This document shows positions 9,418 through 34,477 of a stretch of 38,157 nucleotides of DNA, in pieces; positions within the stretch are counted from its first letter, which is position 1; the number at the start of each line of letters is the position of its first letter. The stretch comes from Candidatus Woesearchaeota archaeon. GTDB lineage: Archaea; Nanobdellota; Nanobdellia; SCGC-AAA011-G17; ARS1178. A program made the position numbers and the translations under genes. The DNA lies in assembly GCA_964367025.1 (NCBI GenBank), contig CAYIWE010000001.1, positions 1-38,157 of the forward strand, written 5' to 3'. Under the pieces are notes generated by a model. The model did not search any database. It was not told the origin of the DNA and was given only the letters and a program-made list of their open reading frames with translations.

Positions 9418-9596
9418 CGCCGAGGCTGGGACTTTCAGACTTTTTAGTGAAGTTTTTTCCTAAAAAAGTTCATTCGAACCCAGATACCCCGAAGGGAACA
9501 GGCTTTCTATCAATCTGGCTCAAGGCTTACACACCCTTTTCCGTGAACGCTTTTCTTAAAAGGGTTCTGCGCAATACCAGATTATGCGACCTCGGC
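9418..9596 (-). tRNA. tRNA-Ser(UGA) with three predicted introns
   Basis: Acceptor stem GCCGAGG/CCUCGGC with discriminator G73. D-arm GCAU-AAUCUGGUA-UUGC. The anticodon arm CAG[intron ~9566-9527]GC-CUUGAG[intron ~9518-9505]A-GCCUG gives stem CAGGC/GCCUG and anticodon UGA. Long variable arm CCC-UUCG-GGG. T-arm CUGGG-UUCGAA[intron ~9472-9432]U-CCCAG. A TATA-like CTTTAAAAATA lies about 25-33 nt upstream. Junctions are accurate to about 2 nt. Confidence 0.68.
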
Positions 9597-9633: not shown

Positions 9634-9870
9634 TTATAATTCTATTTCGCCCCAGTTCCATGGCCTATTCAAAATTAGATGTTTGCATTCGCCTTTTAAT
9701 ACATTAATATTTTTGTTTTTTAGTTTATTAAAGTAGTAATCATCCTCTGAGTTATCAATTAAAAGCACTGAATAATTTTCATAAGTTAAATTGTTTATAG
9801 ATTGGGAATATTCTTCTAAACAATATTCTTGATACTTGGAAGTTGGACATCCAACTAAAATTTTAGGTTT
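9634..9870 (-). pseudogene. Start-less fragment resembling the N-terminus of a GT-A-fold (family-2-like) glycosyltransferase
   Basis: Minus-strand frame reads KILVGCPTSKYQEYCLEEYSQSINNLTYENYSVLLIDNSEDDYYFNKLKNKNINVLKGE..., ending at TAA (9636-9634). It has no ATG/GTG/TTG start. The frame overlaps the end of the methyltransferase gene and runs into the tRNA-Ser promoter region. Confidence 0.35.
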
Positions 9871-10453
9871 CGTTTTCAGACAAATAAATTCTATAACCTG
9901 TTTTTTTTGTTATGACTTTTAAATTTCCAAATATTTGTTCCATATATTCTGATAAATATTTCCCGCCTTTATTGTGTCTAGCCACTAGTTCTAATAAACC
10001 GTTTTTGTTTAAGTGCTCTTTTGCATGTTTGACCATATCTAAACATATTTCTTTTCCTGCTGTTTGCGGCGGGTTTATCAAAATTGTATCAAACTTTATA
10101 TTTTTTAATGGTTCGTATAAATTGCCTTGAATAACTTTTGCATTTCTTATGTTATTTATCTTTAAGTTTAACTCTGCTATTTGACATGCTCTTTTATTTA
10201 TATCTGTTAAATAAACATCCTCTTTTGTTAATTTTGATGCAACTAAACCAATTATACCGTAACCACAACCTAAATCAAGGGTTTTTCCCTTTATAACCAT
10301 ATTATCTATTAAAATTACTGTTCCTTTATCTATTCTTTTGGGTGAAAACATTCCAGAAGCAGTGTATATTTCAAAACTAAAATTTCTTAAATTTACTCTT
10401 AGTTTTTTTAGTTTTAGTTTTGATGTTTGGGTTTCAGAGTAGTAATGGGTCAT
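9863..10453 (-). CDS. Class I SAM-dependent methyltransferase (MTS-domain, RsmC/RsmD-like)
   Basis: Motif I LDLGCGYGIIGL, the DIN motif (LTDINKRA) and ILINPPQ (NPPx motif of N-methyltransferases). Its start overlaps the upstream gene stop by 4 nt. Confidence 0.8.
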   Translation of the reverse strand: MTHYYSETQTSKLKLKKLRVNLRNFSFEIYTASGMFSPKRIDKGTVILIDNMVIKGKTLDLGCGYGIIGLVASKLTKEDVYLTDINKRACQIAELNLKINNIRNAKVIQGNLYEPLKNIKFDTILINPPQTAGKEICLDMVKHAKEHLNKNGLLELVARHNKGGKYLSEYMEQIFGNLKVITKKTGYRIYLSENET

Positions 10454-11037
10454 TTCATAACACCTAATAAAGTTAATATTAATCTGTCTGTTAATTTGAT
10501 TAAATCATCTTCATTTTTTGCTTCTATTATAATACAGTATCTATCTCTATAAATTTTATTTTCTTCTTTATCGTGTTCTAAATCAATCACAGTTACCAAA
10601 TAATTAGAATCATTGCAAGTTTTGATTGGTGCTTCCCCACCCGGTTTTGTTAAAGTATTTTCTGTTCTTATTTTAAAAACTCCCCAATCTGGGTGTAATC
10701 CTAAAACTTTACTCAAGTGCATCATTGCTATAGATGTTTTTCCTGTTCCGTTTGGGTCTGTTGTTATGAATACCTGAGTTGAATTTAAGACTATATTTTT
10801 TATAGAATCATCAAAAGTAATGTTCTCTTTTTCTAAACTTCTTGGATCATATCTTAAGTCTACTAATACAACTCTCTCTTTTTTTCCTGTTTCTTCCAAG
10901 AAAACTGTGGCTGCCCAACCATACTGATTTTTAGTTATTGTAAATCCATTATACTCATACCTATCACTTCTTCCAAAGCAACCACTGATAAAAATTAGAG
11001 ATAATATTAAAAACAAAAATAGTATCTTTTTATTCAT
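10450..11037 (-). CDS. Lipoprotein-like secreted protein, paralog of 11034-11624
   Basis: Signal peptide with lipobox-like LIFISGC. It shares the PIKTC ... Y..(N/R)(C/YC)(L/I)II ... D(K/R)L(L/I)L motifs with the upstream gene. Confidence 0.6.
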   Translation of the reverse strand: MNKKILFLFLILSLIFISGCFGRSDRYEYNGFTITKNQYGWAATVFLEETGKKERVVLVDLRYDPRSLEKENITFDDSIKNIVLNSTQVFITTDPNGTGKTSIAMMHLSKVLGLHPDWGVFKIRTENTLTKPGGEAPIKTCNDSNYLVTVIDLEHDKEENKIYRDRYCIIIEAKNEDDLIKLTDRLILTLLGVMK

Positions 11038-11624
11038 TTTTCTATTAACATATCGAGAAGTAATTTATCTATTTTCTTTGTTATTTCCTGGTTATTTCCT
11101 TGAATTATAAGGCAGTTTTCAGAGTAAAAAATTTCTTGTTCTTGTGATTGCTTAAATAAGATTATTTTTTGTTGTGTTGTAGCATCTTTACAGGTTTTTA
11201 TTGGTATATTTGGACACTGTTCATTCTCTTCTGAACATGAGTTTATTAATGGAGTATTCAGGAATTGTTGTAGATTCCCTAATAATTCAATTTGCATATA
11301 ATTTGTGGTTTCTTTGTAATTTCTTGTGACATATATTTTCTGTGCTGAGTTTAAATCATTTAAAAAAACTTTTGGGATTTGTATTTGTTCTAGATCTTTT
11401 GGGTTAGAAGATATCATTATTGGTTTATTGTCTATATAAGTTAACCATTTATCATTTGCTTTTGAAAATGTTTTTTGTTTATACTGGGTTCTTTCATCTT
11501 CTGTTTCTCTTACAACTACAAAGCCAAGGACACTAAATACCATTAAAAAAATGATTATTATGGCCATTAATAATCTTGATTTGTTAGAACTGACATTTCT
11601 TGGACTCTTAAATTTTTGTTTCAT
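11034..11624 (-). CDS. N-terminally anchored extracytoplasmic protein, paralog of 10450-11037
   Basis: TM segment LLMAIIIIFLMVFSVLGFVVV. C-terminal motifs PIKTCKD and ENCLIIQGNNQEITKKIDKLLLDML parallel PIKTCND and RYCIIIEAKNEDDLIKLTDRLILTLL in the next gene. Confidence 0.6.
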   Translation of the reverse strand: MKQKFKSPRNVSSNKSRLLMAIIIIFLMVFSVLGFVVVRETEDERTQYKQKTFSKANDKWLTYIDNKPIMISSNPKDLEQIQIPKVFLNDLNSAQKIYVTRNYKETTNYMQIELLGNLQQFLNTPLINSCSEENEQCPNIPIKTCKDATTQQKIILFKQSQEQEIFYSENCLIIQGNNQEITKKIDKLLLDMLIEK

Positions 11625-14430: not shown

Positions 14431-14571
14431 TGGGCCCGGTGAGACTTCCTATAATCTAATGCTGATACAAGCCCTAGTTCTTATGTTCGAACTCACGACC
14501 TTTTGGCCTTAATTTTGTGATTAAGTCCACCATGTCAAGGTGACGTCATAGCCAGACTAGACCACGGGCCC
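14431..14571 (-). tRNA. tRNA-Val(GAC) with two non-canonical introns (variable region and T-loop)
   Basis: Acceptor stem GGGCCCG/CGGGCCC with discriminator A73. D-arm GUCU..UGAC. Anticodon arm UCACC-UUGACAU-GGUGG. A 25-nt insertion (~14525-14501) lies between position 43/44 and GGUC. T-arm GUGAG-UUCGAA[~14485-14445]U-CUCAC. Confidence 0.72.
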
Positions 14572-14574
14572 AAA

Positions 14575-14690
14575 AGCCTCAGGAGGGAGTTGAACCCCCG
14601 ACCTATTGCTTTCTTATTGTTTTTTTGGTGAAACTTTTTACCAAAAAAGGTTTTACAAGGCAATTGCTCTACCAACTGAGCTACTGAGGC
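14575..14690 (-). tRNA. tRNA-Thr(UGU) with a canonical 37/38 intron
   Basis: GCCUCAG-UA-GCUC-AGUUGGUA-GAGC-A-AUUGC-CUUGUA[intron ~14653-14611]A-GCAAU-AGGUC-GGGGG-UUCAACU-CCCUC-CUGAGGC-U. It lies 3 nt upstream of tRNA-Val. Confidence 0.85.
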
Positions 14691-17677: not shown

Positions 17678-17828
17678 AGCCCCGTAGTGTAGCGGTCAAA
17701 TAATCCTACCTCTTTTTTGAATAGGATAGACAAATCATGGTGCCCTTTGGAGGCATCGACGGAGGTTCGAATATAAGGATTGCATCCTTATCAACCTGCA
17801 ATCTTTTAAGGAAATCCTCCCGGGGCTA
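17678..17828 (+). tRNA. tRNA-Gln(UUG) with two non-canonical introns (D-loop and T-loop)
   Basis: Acceptor stem AGCCCCG/CGGGGCU with discriminator A73. D-arm GUGU-AGCGGUCAAA[intron ~17701-17734]UCAU. Anticodon arm GUGCC-CUUUGGA-GGCAU. T-arm GGAGG-UUCGAA[intron ~17772-17814]U-CCUCC. TATA-like TTTTTAAAA lies about 30 nt upstream. Confidence 0.74.
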
Positions 17829-17910: not shown

Positions 17911-18339
17911 ATGGCTAAAGCTAAAAAGGTTGAGAAAACAAATAATAAAAATTTAATAACAATAGTTCTTTTGATTGTTGCAGGCATAGTTATTTTAGGT
18001 TATACAAATAACATAGGAAATGTTGCTAAAGGAGATTTGGCAAAACTTACTGTTACCAAAAGCGAGGGTAGTTCTACTGCTACAATAAAGATTGATGCAG
18101 GACATTACGGTGTTCAAAGATTTTATGAAGTTCTTGGTCCTGATAAAAAACTAGCATCTAATGGTAGGAATACACTTTGCAATGCCAATACTCTTTGTAC
18201 GGGTTCTATTAAAAAGAACATTGGAATTCAACAAAGTTGGAGACAAAAACCAGGAATTTATACGGTTAAAGTGTATGATAAAAACAGAGAAAGAGCTGGT
18301 GAAGATCCATATATAACAGCCACTTTTAGGGTTCCATAA
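17911..18339 (+). CDS. Signal-anchored small surface protein, tandem family member 1
   Basis: N-terminus MAKAKKVEKTNNKNLITIVLLIVAGIVILGYTN. Ectodomain motifs GHYG, C-x5-C and KPGIYTVKVYDKNRERAG ... FRV. Confidence 0.75.
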   Translation: MAKAKKVEKTNNKNLITIVLLIVAGIVILGYTNNIGNVAKGDLAKLTVTKSEGSSTATIKIDAGHYGVQRFYEVLGPDKKLASNGRNTLCNANTLCTGSIKKNIGIQQSWRQKPGIYTVKVYDKNRERAGEDPYITATFRVP

Positions 18340-18433
18340 ACTGTTTTCTTTTTTATTTTTAAATAAAAAGTGTTAAATATTAGAAGAGATTTTTATTAAG
18401 TAAATTATGATAATTAAAAGGGGTGTTTAGATA

Positions 18434-18904
18434 ATGGCTAAAGCTAAAAAGGTTGAGAAAACAAATAATAAAAATTTAATAACAATAGTTCTTTTGATTG
18501 TTGCAGGCATAGTTATTTTAGGTTATACAAATAGTACTGGTTTCGTTGGTAAGGGTGAGGGGATTAAGTTGTCCAGTGTAAAAGTAGTACCTAGGTTTAA
18601 TTGGGATGATGAAATTAATCCGGGTGATTATATTACAATTAAATTTAAACCAGGAACATATGGTTATGAAGGGTATTATGAAATATTTAAAAAAGGAAAT
18701 CCTGACAAAAGAGTAGTTGGTCGTACAAAAATATCTGCTGTTTCTGGATGTAGTATGACTTGTAAAAAAGAATGGGACCAGGGTGTTAAGACAAGTGATT
18801 GGAAACCTGGAATTTACTATGTGAAAGTATATGATAAAAGCAGAGCAAGAAGTGGTGCTGTAGGAGATGAGAGGTATATAAAAGCTGAATTTGAAGTTGT
18901 TTAA
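18434..18904 (+). CDS. Signal-anchored small surface protein, tandem family member 2
   Basis: Same N-terminal 35 aa as the other members. Ectodomain motifs GTYGYEGYYEIFKKG, GCSMTC and WKPGIYYVKVYDKSRARSG ... FEV. Confidence 0.75.
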   Translation: MAKAKKVEKTNNKNLITIVLLIVAGIVILGYTNSTGFVGKGEGIKLSSVKVVPRFNWDDEINPGDYITIKFKPGTYGYEGYYEIFKKGNPDKRVVGRTKISAVSGCSMTCKKEWDQGVKTSDWKPGIYYVKVYDKSRARSGAVGDERYIKAEFEVV

Positions 18905-18991
18905 TATTTTTTATTTCTAAATAAAAAGTGTTAAATATTAGAAGAGATTTTTATTAAGTAAATTATGATAATTAAAAGGGGTGTTTAGATA

Positions 18992-19489
18992 ATGGCTAAA
19001 GCTAAAAAGGTTGAGAAAACAAATAATAAAAATTTATTAACAATAGTTCTTTTGATTGTTGCAGGCATAGTTATTTTAGGTTATACAAATAGTACTGGAC
19101 GTAGTGTTAGTAATCAGTATTCTAGTGTAAAAATAAGTCCAAATACAATTTATGAGGGCGAGGTATTTAAAATATTATTAGAATCGGGTAAATACGGTTA
19201 TGATGATGATTTTGAGATATATAAAGTTGATTATACAACAAATTCACGTGGTGAAAAAGTTAGGAGTGATAACTTTTTGATTAGACAAAAAATAAGCGGG
19301 TGTAGTGGTGTTTGTAAAAAAGATGTAGTATTTAATTATAAGTCAATGATAAGTTGGAAAGGTACAGAAGAGGGAGCAGAGTATTATATAAAAGTATATG
19401 ACAAAAGCAGAGAGAGAGCAGGAAAAACTGGTGAAGATAGATATATGAAATATTCGTTTTTTATTAAGACAAAAGAGCCTACTCTTTAA
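18992..19489 (+). CDS. Signal-anchored small surface protein, tandem family member 3
   Basis: Same N-terminal cassette. Ectodomain motifs GKYGYDDDFEIYKVD, GCSGVC and YYIKVYDKSRERAG. Confidence 0.75.
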   Translation: MAKAKKVEKTNNKNLLTIVLLIVAGIVILGYTNSTGRSVSNQYSSVKISPNTIYEGEVFKILLESGKYGYDDDFEIYKVDYTTNSRGEKVRSDNFLIRQKISGCSGVCKKDVVFNYKSMISWKGTEEGAEYYIKVYDKSRERAGKTGEDRYMKYSFFIKTKEPTL

Positions 19490-19580
19490 GTTTTCTTTTT
19501 TATTTTTAAATAAAAAGCTTTAAATATTAGGAAATTTTATGATGGTTAATAGTCTTAAAAAAAGAATAAGAGGTGTTTAG

Positions 19581-20012
19581 ATGATGGCTAAAGCTAAAAA
19601 GGTTGAGAAAACAAATAATAAAAATTTGATAACCATAGTTCTTTTGATTGTTGCAGGTATAGTTATTTTGAGTTATACCAATAGTACTGGTTTCGTGAGT
19701 AAAGAAGGAAAAACAAAAATAATGGTTTCAGCAGCAAATCCCCCAGAGATTAATGCTGGAGAAGAAATATATATAACTATTGAACCGGGTGTTAAAGGTT
19801 ATGATGGTAATACTTTAGACCTCTATCAAAAAGGAACTTTAGGAAAGAAGACCATAGCAGCTGAAGTGAAGGTACAGTACTGTGGTTCTACGTGTAAAGA
19901 AAAAAGAACTTTAAAATATAGAACTTCAACTAGTTGGAGTGGTACATATTATGCAAGTGTAAAGGACTTAAGTACTAAGAAGGTAGTAGAAACTAGTTTT
20001 AGAGTCTTATAA
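19581..20012 (+). CDS. Signal-anchored small surface protein, tandem family member 4
   Basis: Same N-terminal cassette with an ATGATG start. Ectodomain motifs GVKGYDGN, YCGSTC and YYASVKD ... FRV. Confidence 0.75.
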   Translation: MMAKAKKVEKTNNKNLITIVLLIVAGIVILSYTNSTGFVSKEGKTKIMVSAANPPEINAGEEIYITIEPGVKGYDGNTLDLYQKGTLGKKTIAAEVKVQYCGSTCKEKRTLKYRTSTSWSGTYYASVKDLSTKKVVETSFRVL

Positions 20013-20133
20013 TTAAGTAATTCTTTTTTATTATATTTTTTAATTTATCTTGTTTTTTTAACAAAAAGCTTTAAATATTAGAAGAAATTTATTGAGTTAG
20101 TTAATGATTTAATAAAATAGACGAGGTGTTTAG

Positions 20134-20607
20134 ATGATGGTTAAAGCTAAAAAGGTTGAGAAAACAAATAATAAAAATTTATTAACAATAGTTCTTTTGA
20201 TTGTTGCAGGCATAGTTATTTTGAGTTACACTAATAGTACTGGTTTCGTTACTAAAAGTACGAGAGGAGTAACAACAGTAGAAGTCAGTCCAACAGATGT
20301 AGGAAGTGGTGATATTCTTCTTGTGGGTGTTAAGGCTGGTGCAAAGGGTTATAGTAACCCATTAGAAATTTGGAAAGTTGATTATGCTGATATTAATGAT
20401 GATGGTATTTATAGTGAAAGTGAAAGAAGAGATAATAAAGTAGTCGATATAAAAACTGCATATTGTGGACCTATTTGTACTAAAGATGCAAGTGGAAGAA
20501 GTATAATAAAATATAAAGTAACTACATTGAAAAAAGGAGAATATTACGTAAAAACCACTGATATTGGCACAGGTAATAAAATAAAAGTTTACTTTGATGT
20601 TGTTTAA
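20134..20607 (+). CDS. Signal-anchored small surface protein, tandem family member 5
   Basis: Same N-terminal cassette (MMVKAKKVEK...). Ectodomain motifs GAKGYSNPLEIWKVD, YCGPIC and EYYVKTTD ... FDV. Confidence 0.75.
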   Translation: MMVKAKKVEKTNNKNLLTIVLLIVAGIVILSYTNSTGFVTKSTRGVTTVEVSPTDVGSGDILLVGVKAGAKGYSNPLEIWKVDYADINDDGIYSESERRDNKVVDIKTAYCGPICTKDASGRSIIKYKVTTLKKGEYYVKTTDIGTGNKIKVYFDVV

Positions 20608-21370: not shown

Positions 21371-23317
<1,947 letters not shown>

Positions 23318-28834: not shown

Positions 28835-31189
28835 TTATGATATCCTAAATCTTAAAATTGCTGCAATTCCGCCCAAATCCCTTAATTGAACGCCTTCTCT
28901 TGATTGAACAGAGATTATTTGTAAATGGGTGTGTGTTTGTTCTGCTAATTCTTCTAATTGATCTACTGAAGATTCTTCCACTGATTCAGAAATTAAGAGT
29001 GTATCTACTGCACCTAATTCCAATGCTTTTTTAACCTCTGTAATACCATAAGCTGTTTTTTCGGGTTCTTTTGAGAGTAATTCAAGAAATTTCCCCATTA
29101 TTTCTTTTTCCTGCATTATCTCTTCTTTTATTAACAAATCCCTGCTTTTCTCAACTAATTCCTGTAAACCAAACTCACCAGTGTAGGATAAATCAAAAAT
29201 ACCTATGATCTTTTCCTTTAATTGATTATTTATAGAGTGACCATCTACAAATTCATTTTTTGTTTGTCCGGGTCCACCCACTATTATTCCTTTTAACTCT
29301 TTCATTGGCAAGAATTCTTTATTTACAATTTCTCCAATCCTTTTATAGAATTCTTTTGCTGCTATTTCTCTTAATGATTCAAAACGTTTTGCTGAATTAT
29401 GGACAATTAGACCGTTTGCTATGAAGTTTTGGTTTTTTACTGAAATATCTACCATTTTTGTTAGTTTGTTTGTTATTTGAATGTCTTTAATTTTTACTGG
29501 AATCAATTGATATTGTAGAATTTTGCTTAATTTATTTTTTAGGTTTTTATTTGTTATTTTATCTAAAATTGATGTTTTAAATGCTTGTTTGCTTATTTTT
29601 CTTTTACCTTGTAAAAACATATTTGCTGTTAAGAAATCTCTATGGATAATATAACCTTCTTGTTCAAGAATTTTTCTTATTTCTGTTCCTAAAGGTATTA
29701 TCTGTCTATTAAAACTTTTATATTGTTTTTTTGATATTTCTTTTATTGCTAATTCTAATTTGTTTTTCTTTTTTGAGTATGTAAATCCTATTTTTTCATT
29801 GAAGATTTTTAAAGAATGTATATCTGAAACGTCTATGGAATATCTTATGTTGTTTGAATAGGGATTTCTTCTATTGTCATAGGTTAATAATGAAGACAGT
29901 ATTCCGAATCTTAATAATACAAATTGCAGTTGTTGTGCAAGTAATTTATTATTTACACCTAAACCTATTCTGTTTCTTGAAACATAACCCTCGGCATCAA
30001 AGAATCCTTTTAAGAATGTTGCAACTATTTTGTTTTTTGATTTTAAGATCTTAGAAGGCATTAAAGATTCTTTTGAAGTAGTAATTTCTGGAAATTCTTT
30101 TTTGAATAATTTAACTAATTCTCTTGAATATGTTCTTATAAGGTAATAATTTTTAGTTTTTCTAAATCTTAATGTTGTATTTATTTTTAAAGCTTTTATT
30201 ATTTTTTCTTGATAGTATTTTGCTATTTCTTTGTCTCTTTCATGAAAATTTAGTCTATCTATTTCATAAGAACCATCACCTAAAAAATAGCCAAGTATTT
30301 GAGCAATATCTTTAGGTAATATTTTATTTCCAAAATTTTGGTTTTCTCCTTTAATTTCTATTTTTTCTGGTATTAATAAATAATCCCCAATTTTTAATTC
30401 CTCTGCTGGTTTTTCTTTAATTATATCTTCTCTTACAAAGAACAAATGGTCTTTTGAAGTCTGAATTTCTGTTCTTGGGTGTTTTGTAATAATCTTGTAA
30501 ACTTGGGATTTTTTAGTTTCCCATTTATCTGTAATTGGAGAATCTTCTATTTGAAAATTTGAAAGGTCTGCTGTTTTTAGAATGTAAGGATTATGGGAAT
30601 CTTTTATTTGAATTATTTCTCCATTGTTTGCTTGTATCAAGGTATCTGGAATAATACACTGACCACCAGCGCGACTCTTTCCTGGAACACCAGAAGTTAG
30701 ATGCGCAATTTCATTTATTTGGGTTCCTTTTAATAAACCAACACACCCATCTCTTCTGTCCATAACAACCAAACCATAAAGTTGTTTGGATTCTATCATT
30801 TCAATTAATGGGTCAAGAACAAAAGTTTGATCACACCTGTAAATTCTAATTTTTAGTGGTTTTGGCGGTTCTATTGAAAAAACTTCGATGTGAACTTTAT
30901 TATCTGATTCCGAAATGTTTCCAGAAAACACTGCTAAACCGTTTTTGGGGGTTTTATCAACTAAACGCAAATGCCTAATCAATCTTTCTAGAGAATCAAT
31001 AACGTGTGTTCTTGTTGCTTTATCTTTTATGTTAGAGGCTGTTCCCTGTTCCTGTGCCAAATGATTTATAATTTTATTTAAATCGTAACCTTCAGGAATA
31101 TAAACAGAGACTAATTCAGTATGCCTTCCTCTAAAAGAAGATAATTCTTTTATGAATTTTTTAAATTTGTATTTTTCTTTTGAATCCAT
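28835..31189 (-). CDS. prf1: Peptide chain release factor aRF1, interrupted by an intein
   Basis: Extein motifs TASNIKD (NIKS region), YRCDQTF (YxCxxxF) and GKSRAGGQ|...|SAKRFESLR (GGQ). The combined extein is 177+186 aa. Confidence 0.9.
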   Translation of the reverse strand: MDSKEKYKFKKFIKELSSFRGRHTELVSVYIPEGYDLNKIINHLAQEQGTASNIKDKATRTHVIDSLERLIRHLRLVDKTPKNGLAVFSGNISESDNKVHIEVFSIEPPKPLKIRIYRCDQTFVLDPLIEMIESKQLYGLVVMDRRDGCVGLLKGTQINEIAHLTSGVPGKSRAGGQCIIPDTLIQANNGEIIQIKDSHNPYILKTADLSNFQIEDSPITDKWETKKSQVYKIITKHPRTEIQTSKDHLFFVREDIIKEKPAEELKIGDYLLIPEKIEIKGENQNFGNKILPKDIAQILGYFLGDGSYEIDRLNFHERDKEIAKYYQEKIIKALKINTTLRFRKTKNYYLIRTYSRELVKLFKKEFPEITTSKESLMPSKILKSKNKIVATFLKGFFDAEGYVSRNRIGLGVNNKLLAQQLQFVLLRFGILSSLLTYDNRRNPYSNNIRYSIDVSDIHSLKIFNEKIGFTYSKKKNKLELAIKEISKKQYKSFNRQIIPLGTEIRKILEQEGYIIHRDFLTANMFLQGKRKISKQAFKTSILDKITNKNLKNKLSKILQYQLIPVKIKDIQITNKLTKMVDISVKNQNFIANGLIVHNSAKRFESLREIAAKEFYKRIGEIVNKEFLPMKELKGIIVGGPGQTKNEFVDGHSINNQLKEKIIGIFDLSYTGEFGLQELVEKSRDLLIKEEIMQEKEIMGKFLELLSKEPEKTAYGITEVKKALELGAVDTLLISESVEESSVDQLEELAEQTHTHLQIISVQSREGVQLRDLGGIAAILRFRIS
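29396..30658 (-). mobile_element. 421-aa intein with a LAGLIDADG homing endonuclease domain, inserted after GGQ of aRF1
   Basis: Cys1 (CIIPDTLIQ) lies directly after GGQ. Block B is TSKDHLFFV. LAGLIDADG motifs are LGYFLGDGS and LKGFFDAEGYV. The C-terminal LIVHN is followed by Ser+1 (SAKRF). The codons were checked at 30658-30656 (TGT), 29398-29396 (AAT) and 29395-29393 (TCA). Confidence 0.85.
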
Positions 31190-34287: not shown

Positions 34288-34477
34288 GGGTCGGTAGCTC
34301 AAAAATAAGAAGAATCTCTTCTATTTGGCAAAGCCTGGGAGAGCACTACGCTGAAGATGATCTCATTGGCATTCCTAATGTCAAAGAGGAAATTTGACAC
34401 GTAGGCGTCGTGGGTTCAAAAATAAGGGTTGCACCCTATCAACCCGCAACTTTTGTTAGAAAATCCCGCCCGACCCA
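34288..34477 (+). tRNA. tRNA-Phe(GAA) with three predicted introns (D-loop, canonical 37/38, T-loop)
   Basis: Acceptor stem GGGUCGG/CCGACCC with discriminator A73. D-arm GCUC-A[intron ~34302-34332]GCCUGGGA-GAGC. Anticodon arm CUACG-CUGAAG[intron ~34357-34398]A-CGUAG. Variable region GCGUC. T-arm GUGGG-UUCAAA[intron ~34421-34463]U-CCCGC. TATA-like TTTAAATA lies about 30 nt upstream. Confidence 0.74.

Follow-up and report, generated by a model that had tools for sequence, protein, structure and literature searches.

We analysed a stretch of 38,157 nt from a Candidatus Woesearchaeota archaeon (assembly GCA_964367025.1, contig CAYIWE010000001.1), called the window below, with all coordinates counted from its position 1, and found that its transfer RNA (tRNA) genes for glutamine and phenylalanine carry homologous introns at the same site of the T-loop. 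The two introns belong to a family with a nearly invariant 29-nt core. The preliminary description of this DNA had postulated one structured intron family at the same T-loop site of different tRNAs; our searches support this and extend the family to D-loops, anticodon stems, the canonical position 37/38 and other genomes. In our opinion, this is probably a mobile family of introns with bulge-helix-bulge (BHB) splice motifs, like that proposed for Thermoproteales, here in DPANN archaea.

Both introns are 43 nt long, lie between A59 and U60 on the forward strand, and have exactly the coordinates and sequences claimed for them beforehand, 17772-17814 in tRNA-Gln and 34421-34463 in tRNA-Phe. The tRNA-Phe intron has the same sequence in L143, a contig of a Hainich groundwater metagenome (H43, 0.1 um fraction) that was 99.4% identical to the window across 4 kb. 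The global alignment of the two insertions scored 22, compared with a mean of -6.3 (sd 3.7, maximum 7) in 2000 shuffles, so that the proposed homology held at z = 7.7 with 0 of the 2000 shuffles reaching the score. The core common to both is AUAAGGRUUGCAYCCUUAUCAACCYGCAA (29 nt). In tRNA-Gln it reads AUAAGGAUUGCAUCCUUAUCAACCUGCAA (17773-17801, +; 48.9 bits with our covariance model R1), and in tRNA-Phe it is a G-C variant with a one-base deletion, AUAAGGGUUGCACCC-UAUCAACCCGCAA (34422-34449, +; 42.7 bits), which falls in a G8-C14 subfamily known from metagenomes. The two helices drawn earlier in these introns both exist and their pairing is kept in the Gln and Phe copies; they are mutually exclusive because nt 7-9 are common to both. 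Hairpin 1 (AUAAGGAU-UGC-AUCCUUAU; 17773-17791, +) is the alternative fold of the core, and its nt 8/14 pair is A-U in the window tRNA-Gln and G-C in tRNA-Phe and in the tRNA-Gln of the relative L137. Helix 2 (17775-17806, +) joins 17775-17784 with 17797-17806 around a 12-nt loop, forms the inner helix (h') of the splice motif, and is both the minimum-free-energy and the centroid fold of the tRNA-Gln precursor (z = -2.98). In thermodynamic folding the long helix (UAAGGNUUGC/GCAANCUUA) was favoured, and forcing the short hairpin 1 cost 3-9 kcal/mol.

The genes concerned escape the usual tools. ARAGORN called zero tRNAs in the raw window sequence and Rfam recognised one, a tRNA-Thr with a 45-nt canonical intron; the standard finders thus missed four of the five tRNA genes that appeared, with eleven insertions in total, when the intergenic regions were read and candidate insertions deleted. 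After insertion removal, ARAGORN called tRNA-Gln(UUG), tRNA-Phe(GAA), tRNA-Val and tRNA-Ser, each restored to a canonical tRNA. The tRNA-Gln(UUG) gene (17678-17828, +) has two insertions, and its exons agree with those of the orthologs without introns in L153 and L157; the sequence is a contiguous GGUUCGAAUCC in intron-less orthologs. The D-loop insertion of this gene (17700-17734, +), described before as about 34 nt with a CAAA duplication, is real; it measures 34-35 nt, the boundary being ambiguous inside the CAAA repeat present on both flanks, and it is missing in the L137 ortholog. The tRNA-Phe(GAA) gene (34288-34477, +) has three insertions, in the D-loop (34302-34331), at the canonical 37/38 (34357-34398) and in the T-loop. 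The others are tRNA-Ser(UGA) (9418-9596, -; three insertions), tRNA-Thr(UGU) (14575-14690, -; one) and tRNA-Val(GAC) (14431-14571, -; two). A low G+C content of 30% and the failure of ARAGORN on the raw window might suggest that the introns resemble each other by chance or through AT-rich low complexity, or that these genes are dead pseudogenes. This is hardly credible and we consider it refuted by the alignment z, by identical 29-mers in unrelated assemblies, by exons that restore full cloverleaves, by the location of the genes at syntenic positions of intact intron-less orthologs, and by a tail that co-varies with the exon.

Outside the window, we scanned one genome per species (185,579 species) with a 22-base core pattern, AAGGNTTGCANCCN{1,2}ATCAACCNGCAA. 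The scan gave 17 matches at 15 loci, all in metagenome-assembled genomes (MAGs) of Woesearchaeota or Nanoarchaeota from groundwater and similar samples, with at most about five copies per MAG, and all 17 copies lay inside tRNA genes. Nine distinct T-loop copies were at 59/60; others were in the D-loop (L125, L126, L129, L131 and L132), in the anticodon stem (L122 and L128) and at the canonical 37/38 (L135). In L129 and L132, one tRNA gene has the core twice, in the D-loop and the T-loop. The D-loop copy of L132 (2058-2100, +), beside a normal T-loop copy in the same gene, has ATCAACCTGCA doubled around GGATT and looks rearranged. A second scan, of metagenomes for copies with a base other than A at intron position 8, yielded 16 loci with six distinct T-loop introns, including one in a tRNA-Val, longer forms in L141 and L151, and the window tRNA-Phe intron (L143); three of its loci (L140, L144 and L146) were chance matches inside open reading frames (ORFs). 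In all, the core occurs in at least eight MAGs plus several metagenomes. The 22-base pattern had 0 matches in 2.9 million viral contigs; a 14-base pattern proved too short, with more than 120 chance matches in viral contigs (L001-L120).

The core ATAAGGATTGCATCCTTATCAACCTGCAA is identical over its 29 nt in 16 of the 17 copies of the genome scan. Uniformity at the 22 pattern positions is a product of the search itself, and the seven positions free of the pattern agreed with the consensus in 118 of 119 cells (hand count). The tails 3' of the core had a mean pairwise identity of 0.69. By eye, the printed contexts of the T-loop copies show about 15 different acceptor-stem 3' strands, that is, tRNAs of different identity. 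The isotypes of these foreign tRNAs are uncertain, and ARAGORN calls after arbitrary deletions are unreliable and were not used.

A putative splice motif in the T-arm fits the position of the introns. In a canonical BHB, 4 bp separate two 3-nt bulges, each of which is cut behind its second base. For an intron at 59/60, this predicts that its bases -6 to -3 pair with positions 54-57, that the T-stem is the outer helix, and that one bulge is made of A58, A59 and intron base 1 and the other of the last two intron bases plus U60. We counted these pairs in 18 T-loop introns from both ends by script. Pairs 54-56 were formed in 52 of 54 cells, and the base opposite position 57 follows the exon (A-U in eight, G-C in three, G.U in one). 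Six introns have a purine-A mismatch at 57, namely those of the window tRNA-Gln, tRNA-Phe and tRNA-Val, those of L136 and L137, which are close relatives of the window, and that of L149, from Hainich-site contigs. The purine run noted before U60 in the preliminary description can now be explained as the 3' strand of the central BHB helix, pairing with U54-U55-C56-R57, followed by two bulge bases. In tRNA-Gln, U54-U55-C56-G57 (17766-17769, +) is the 5' strand of the central helix and pairs with 17810-17812, G57 being mismatched with A17809; AGGA, the 3' strand, and then the 3-nt bulge A, A, U60 with the 3' splice site extend over 17809-17815 (+). In tRNA-Phe, GAA pairs with U54-U55-C56 (34415-34417) and precedes the bulge A, A, U60 (together 34459-34464, +), A57 is mismatched with A34458, and the minimum-free-energy fold has the T-stem, a 3-bp central helix and the 3-nt bulge.

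Folding of the 60-nt T-arm with its intron gave the T-stem, a central helix of 3-4 bp, a 3-nt bulge and the inner helix UAAGGNUUGC/GCAANCUUA, with z about -3. Most foreign copies have all four pairs of the central helix, a T-stem of 5 bp and two 3-nt bulges. Among the boundary shifts that give the same mature sequence in the window copies, only 59/60 yields a BHB-like geometry. At the other sites, the exon and tail bases are GCUU/AAGC (L126), ACUU/AAGU (L129), CUGG/CCAG (L131) and GCUU/GAGC (L125, paired by hand) in D-loops, GCAC/GUGC (L128) and GCAC/GUGU (L122, paired by hand) in anticodon stems, and UUCC/GGAA at 37/38 (L135). The pairing between exon and intron in the central helix is maintained by compensatory change, as seen at position 57 and in the D-loop pair GCUU/AAGC versus ACUU/AAGU. 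With guessed boundaries, a strict BHB could be drawn neither for the D-loop introns of the window Gln and Phe genes nor for the tRNA-Val intron in the variable region or the intron of tRNA-Thr.

Comparison with relatives indicates when the introns arrived. We reached six syntenic loci by way of the adjacent RecJ-like protein (58-61% identity), whose homologs are named Woesearchaeota or Nanoarchaeota by their sources, and they were therefore not selected for the intron. All six keep the gene order S15, RecJ, S3Ae. The T-loop intron was absent from the four syntenic tRNA-Gln genes found (4/4) and from all six tRNA-Val genes, five of which had no intron whatever, and three of three tRNA-Thr genes were intron-less. 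The module covariance model found no copy in about 99 kb of these syntenic relatives (L152-L158). In L152, tRNA-Ser(UGA) is interrupted by introns three times, at the sites used in the window gene. Because the syntenic tRNA-Gln, tRNA-Val and tRNA-Thr genes are intron-less, we take the introns to be recent and dispensable gains. Relatives without the insertions and with the same exons had been named beforehand as a finding that would speak against an intron family. Such relatives exist, but they do not refute the family; they argue for recent gain and against a function required by the tRNA. Judged from these loci, the window introns are recent, turned over quickly and not needed by the tRNA, and orthologs without introns speak for a hairpin that the host can dispense with.

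The closest relative is L137 (86% nucleotide identity), whose tRNA-Gln gene (about 1330-1420, -) does have the T-loop intron. Its core shows two differences from that of the window, A to G and U to C, which are paired with each other in the short hairpin, and its tail shows one inserted base and three substitutions. This gene lacks the D-loop intron but has a 21-nt one at 10/11. From these sequences, the core is changing less than the tail despite fast intron turnover. Just upstream of the L137 gene, 10 nt of its 5' end are repeated in tandem, and L156 and L158 apparently have the same 10/11 intron. In L152, a reverse-transcriptase ORF (RVT_1, 342 aa; 683-1711, +) lies between two 121-aa ORFs and adjoins S15 and RecJ, roughly where the window has tRNA-Gln and an array of paralogous ORFs, and thus relatives do carry reverse transcriptases.

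Each member of the family consists of one variable base, the 29-nt core and a tail of 12-14 nt; the variable 5' bases number two in D-loop copies and three in a single copy of the anticodon stem. If the family is a mobile BHB intron, the core would contribute its 5' part, UAAGGNUUGC, to the inner helix, paired with GCAA-N-CUUA, which spans the core end and the tail start, and the next-to-last four tail bases would form the central 4-bp helix with four exon bases ending two before the 5' splice site. In the T-loop, U54-U55-C56-R57 would be the exon strand of this helix and the T-stem the outer helix. The splice sites would then sit in two 3-nt bulges, in a geometry that carries the canonical 37/38 intron over from the anticodon arm to the T-arm, and the splicing endonuclease is expected to cut both bulges and an RNA ligase to join the exons. 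Spread would occur by copying of the whole cassette into other tRNA genes. Because the T-arm GGUUCRAAUCC is the same in all tRNAs, one tail would fit every T-loop, which could account for the repeated use of 59/60; four changed tail bases would retarget the cassette to a D-loop, an anticodon stem or 37/38. The copying may take place at the DNA level, by conversion through short conserved tRNA flanks, and the D-loop flanks, among the most conserved parts of tRNA, would suit such short-homology copying. Reverse splicing at the RNA level, with the four tail bases as guide, would be an equally good fit. No target-site duplication was visible in the printed sequences, which were inspected by eye without a dedicated test.

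Several observations weigh against this explanation. The window Gln and Phe copies have a central helix of 3 bp with a G.A or A.A mismatch, and their inner helix begins 2-3 nt past the bulge and not directly at it. Such a relaxed motif needs a broad-specificity endonuclease, and no splicing endonuclease gene was found among the window ORFs. We infer both splicing and mobility of the family from sequence. Every copy outside the window was retrieved with a pattern taken from the window, and the uniformity of these copies is therefore partly built in; the R1 scores are bimodal, at 43-49 bits or below 16 with none between. The core is nearly invariant beside a variable tail, while a selfish neutral intron should decay instead. 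Finally, four copies outside tRNA genes, described below, have no BHB, and for them the intron model alone is insufficient. The invariance of the core could come from a requirement of the copying mechanism, from a function of the hairpin RNA or from very recent spread.

The copies outside tRNA genes occur in four distinct contexts, always with the module on the sense strand and its UAA being or overlapping the stop codon of an ORF. They lie 3' of the TFS gene and 5' of PCNA (L145), between two T2SSF-domain genes (L147 and L150, orthologous loci at two sites), and 3' of a small ORF in L139 and in L138 with L148. They keep ATAAGGGTTGCACCCTTATCAACCTG without a tail, and no BHB can be drawn around them. 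In L150, the two T2SSF-domain ORFs give no clear sign of being a single gene interrupted by a BHB intron, since no BHB is present and each ORF looks complete. Over all contexts, the nt 8/14 pair of the hairpin is A-U in 18 cases, G-C in about 10 and G.U in one (L139), with no mismatch. A diverged intergenic hairpin in L129, AUAAGAAAC-UGC-GUUUCUUAU-CAAC, differs in three pairs, retains stem base, loop and 3' flank, and is a single case. The non-tRNA copies argue that the hairpin is more than intron filler. A longer form of the module is found in the T-loop introns of L141 and L151 and in L138 (1040-1083, -), in which a second hairpin, e.g. GGCGACCU-GAA-GGUCACC, replaces GCAA-CUUA. About 46 nt are common to the tRNA intron of L151 and the 3' untranslated region of the small ORF in L138, and the latter region ends with a hairpin plus T-tract terminator.

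It is possible, though on balance unlikely, that the 27-nt hairpin module (AUAAGGRUUGCAYCCUUAU, then CAACCUG) acts as an independent functional RNA element, such as a protein-binding site or an element for RNA stabilisation or processing, hosted by tRNA introns and by the 3' ends of messenger RNAs (mRNAs). Selection on that function would keep the core invariant, and it would agree with a core much better conserved than the tail of the same introns and with an nt 8/14 pair kept as A-U, G-C or G.U and never mismatched. The window and L137 tRNA-Gln cores differ by that compensated pair alone, while several of about 13 tail positions differ. The four independent sense-strand copies that overlap stop codons without tail or BHB point in the same direction, as does the diverged L129 hairpin, which keeps its stem base, UGC loop and CAAC. 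However, with orthologous tRNAs lacking introns and about 99 kb of syntenic DNA lacking any copy, such a function would be lineage-specific and dispensable. Hairpin 1 is also not the favoured fold in the precursor, the G-C subfamily may stem from a single event and would then count for few independent covariation changes, no Rfam family matches the module, and no partner protein is known. Features of a ribozyme, known RNA or promoter were not seen in the module by eye, nor by Rfam. The sequence AACCUGC also matches 7 bases near the 3' end of 16S ribosomal RNA, which we judged to be chance.

A more specific proposal, which we put forward tentatively, is that the module is an autonomous, selected cis-element that becomes a retargetable intron cassette with a four-base 'guide' tail and also serves at mRNA 3' ends in Woesearchaeota. 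As part of the same tentative proposal, a dedicated factor would recognise the module at the RNA level. If true, this would be the first sequence-defined mobile BHB intron with a landing site set by base pairing.

The elements called repetitive extragenic palindromes (REP) and miniature inverted-repeat transposable elements (MITE) in bacteria and archaea consist of a short palindrome with a conserved flank, occur in many copies, and are often located just 3' of genes. Our module is likewise a multi-copy palindrome with a flank. It might accordingly be regarded as a small palindromic DNA repeat, moved for instance by a transposase that binds single-strand hairpins, which lands in many places and of which only spliceable insertions survive in tRNA genes. 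The perfect 8-bp palindrome with its conserved 3' flank, the near identity of many copies across genomes and the intergenic position of some of them agree with this. We nevertheless hold it to be improbable. Most module copies are spliceable introns in tRNA genes, and all tRNA copies and all four intergenic copies are in sense orientation, unlike REP or MITE elements. The G.U in L139 and the U.G in the tRNA-Val copy fit pairing in RNA and not in DNA, and random insertion would not bring four tail bases complementary to each new exon context, which all tRNA copies possess. The lack of matches in viral contigs and of a visible target-site duplication speak against it too, and no transposase was linked to the module, although transposases were not examined genome-wide.

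The mobile BHB intron family that we favour may be compared with known systems. In Thermoproteales, the distribution of transposed tRNA introns points to recent gain (Fujishima et al. 2010, via PMC4033280 and PMC4090602); there the BHB motif is taken to mark out potential landing sites and the mechanism is called unknown (PMC4033280, PMC4090602). As in that case, near-identical introns occur here in different tRNAs and at different positions, and are patchy among relatives. However, the Thermoproteales are hyperthermophilic Crenarchaeota and the present hosts are mesophilic, AT-rich groundwater Woesearchaeota of the DPANN. The Woesearchaeota family also differs by a 29-nt core identical across species-level genomes, an exon-matching tail and a hairpin that occurs outside tRNA genes as well. 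Since the family sequence was found in Woesearchaeota and Nanoarchaeota only, it is a different intron family from that of Thermoproteales. With the canonical 37/38 BHB introns (Marck and Grosjean 2003, cited in PMC11291895), it shares the outer helix and, by prediction, two 3-nt bulges with symmetric cut sites; the canonical BHB has a 4-bp central helix, and the L135 copy sits at 37/38 itself. In contrast to the canonical case, most family copies are at 59/60, where the T-arm replaces the anticodon arm, and the window copies have a 3-bp central helix with a purine-A mismatch.

Disrupted tRNA genes are more numerous in DPANN lineages whose endonuclease has an L3 insert, and prediction recovers only part of the tRNA genes of DPANN genomes (Kaneta et al. 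2018, PMC5829648). The poor detection of the window tRNAs (0/5 by ARAGORN, 1/5 by Rfam) agrees with that account, which deals with an alpha4 endonuclease with an L3 loop; the part of it used here describes neither intron families nor conserved intron sequences. The tRNA-Trp intron of Haloferax and Pyrococcus encodes a functional C/D box small RNA (cited in PMC12558985), and is similar in that its sequence is conserved, there due to the function of the excised RNA. Unlike it, the module sits in many tRNAs and not in one. In the window introns, no RUGAUGA/CUGA pair of C/D boxes was seen by eye and Rfam gave no match at E up to 1. Very high tRNA intron densities are known in some Asgard genomes. 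We know of no common intron core from the tRNA introns of the red alga Cyanidioschyzon merolae. This alga resembles our case in having several introns per tRNA gene, D- and T-arms included, with BHB-like junctions (PMC3728597, PMC9602550), but it is a case in a eukaryotic nucleus. A literature search found no paper containing the module sequence and none describing intron families in DPANN.

The mechanism for the origin and multiplication of non-canonical archaeal tRNA introns is still called unknown in the review PMC4090602. The present family is a clean test case for their multiplication, with an invariant core that can be searched, a short tail in which four bases predict the landing site, and orthologous sites both with and without the intron in a single group of syntenic relatives; its copies come from groundwater sites that are sampled repeatedly. 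Interrupted tRNA genes of this kind partly explain the incomplete-looking tRNA sets of DPANN. That the module also occurs outside tRNA genes hints at a connection between tRNA introns and a genomic repeat of a more general kind; we found no earlier description of such a connection.

Two other T-loop introns of the window share the site. That of tRNA-Val(GAC) (14445-14485, -; AUAAG...CUUGU-AUCAGC with the tail AGGAAG) has the same 59/60 geometry and resembles the intron of tRNA-Gln weakly (z about 3; 12 of 2000 shuffles). It is probably a decayed family member, and a tRNA-Val in L141, from another metagenome, has a true family copy at the same T-loop site. The T-loop intron of tRNA-Ser(UGA) (9432-9472, -), with a CUUUUUU-AGG-AAAAAA hairpin followed by CUUCAC, was unrelated to the Gln/Phe intron by alignment and is of a different family. 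A common hairpin, CUUUUU...AAAAAG followed by (G)UUCAC, is present in this intron, in the anticodon-stem intron of the same gene (9527-9566, -) and within the tRNA-Thr gene (14575-14690, -). On the basis of this hairpin, the two tRNA-Ser introns and the tRNA-Thr intron are a second putative intron family at three different positions, and the tRNA-Ser T-loop of L152 holds a relative of the 9432-9472 intron. The anticodon-stem intron of tRNA-Ser contains CCCTTTTAAGAAAAGCGTTCAC at 9543-9564. This motif occurs elsewhere (L125, L131, L149 and L150) 5' of a tRNA gene, 5' of ORFs and directly 3' of a tRNA gene. As it resembles a BRE/TATA-type promoter, the tRNA-Ser intron may carry an internal promoter, as expected en route to a split tRNA.

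Among the remaining features of the window, a hairpin AAAGGGU-UUU-ACCCUUU followed by UCAAACC is located 18 nt 5' of the gyrB start (21392-21419, +); it matched the module model weakly (10.7 bits, E = 0.27) and may be chance. The ORFs of the window include form III RuBisCO, an AMP-phosphorylase-like protein, gyrase, SRP54/FtsY, S3Ae, S15 and an eRF1 whose gene (28835-31189, -) is split by an intein carrying a LAGLIDADG domain. Three tandem ORFs of 195-196 aa lie at 9863-11624 (-); two of them were scanned, and one proved to be an MTS-type methyltransferase. Directly 3' of tRNA-Gln there are five tandem ORFs of 142-165 aa without a Pfam match (17911-20607, +), which are paralogs because L137 segments align to several of them at 81-88% identity.

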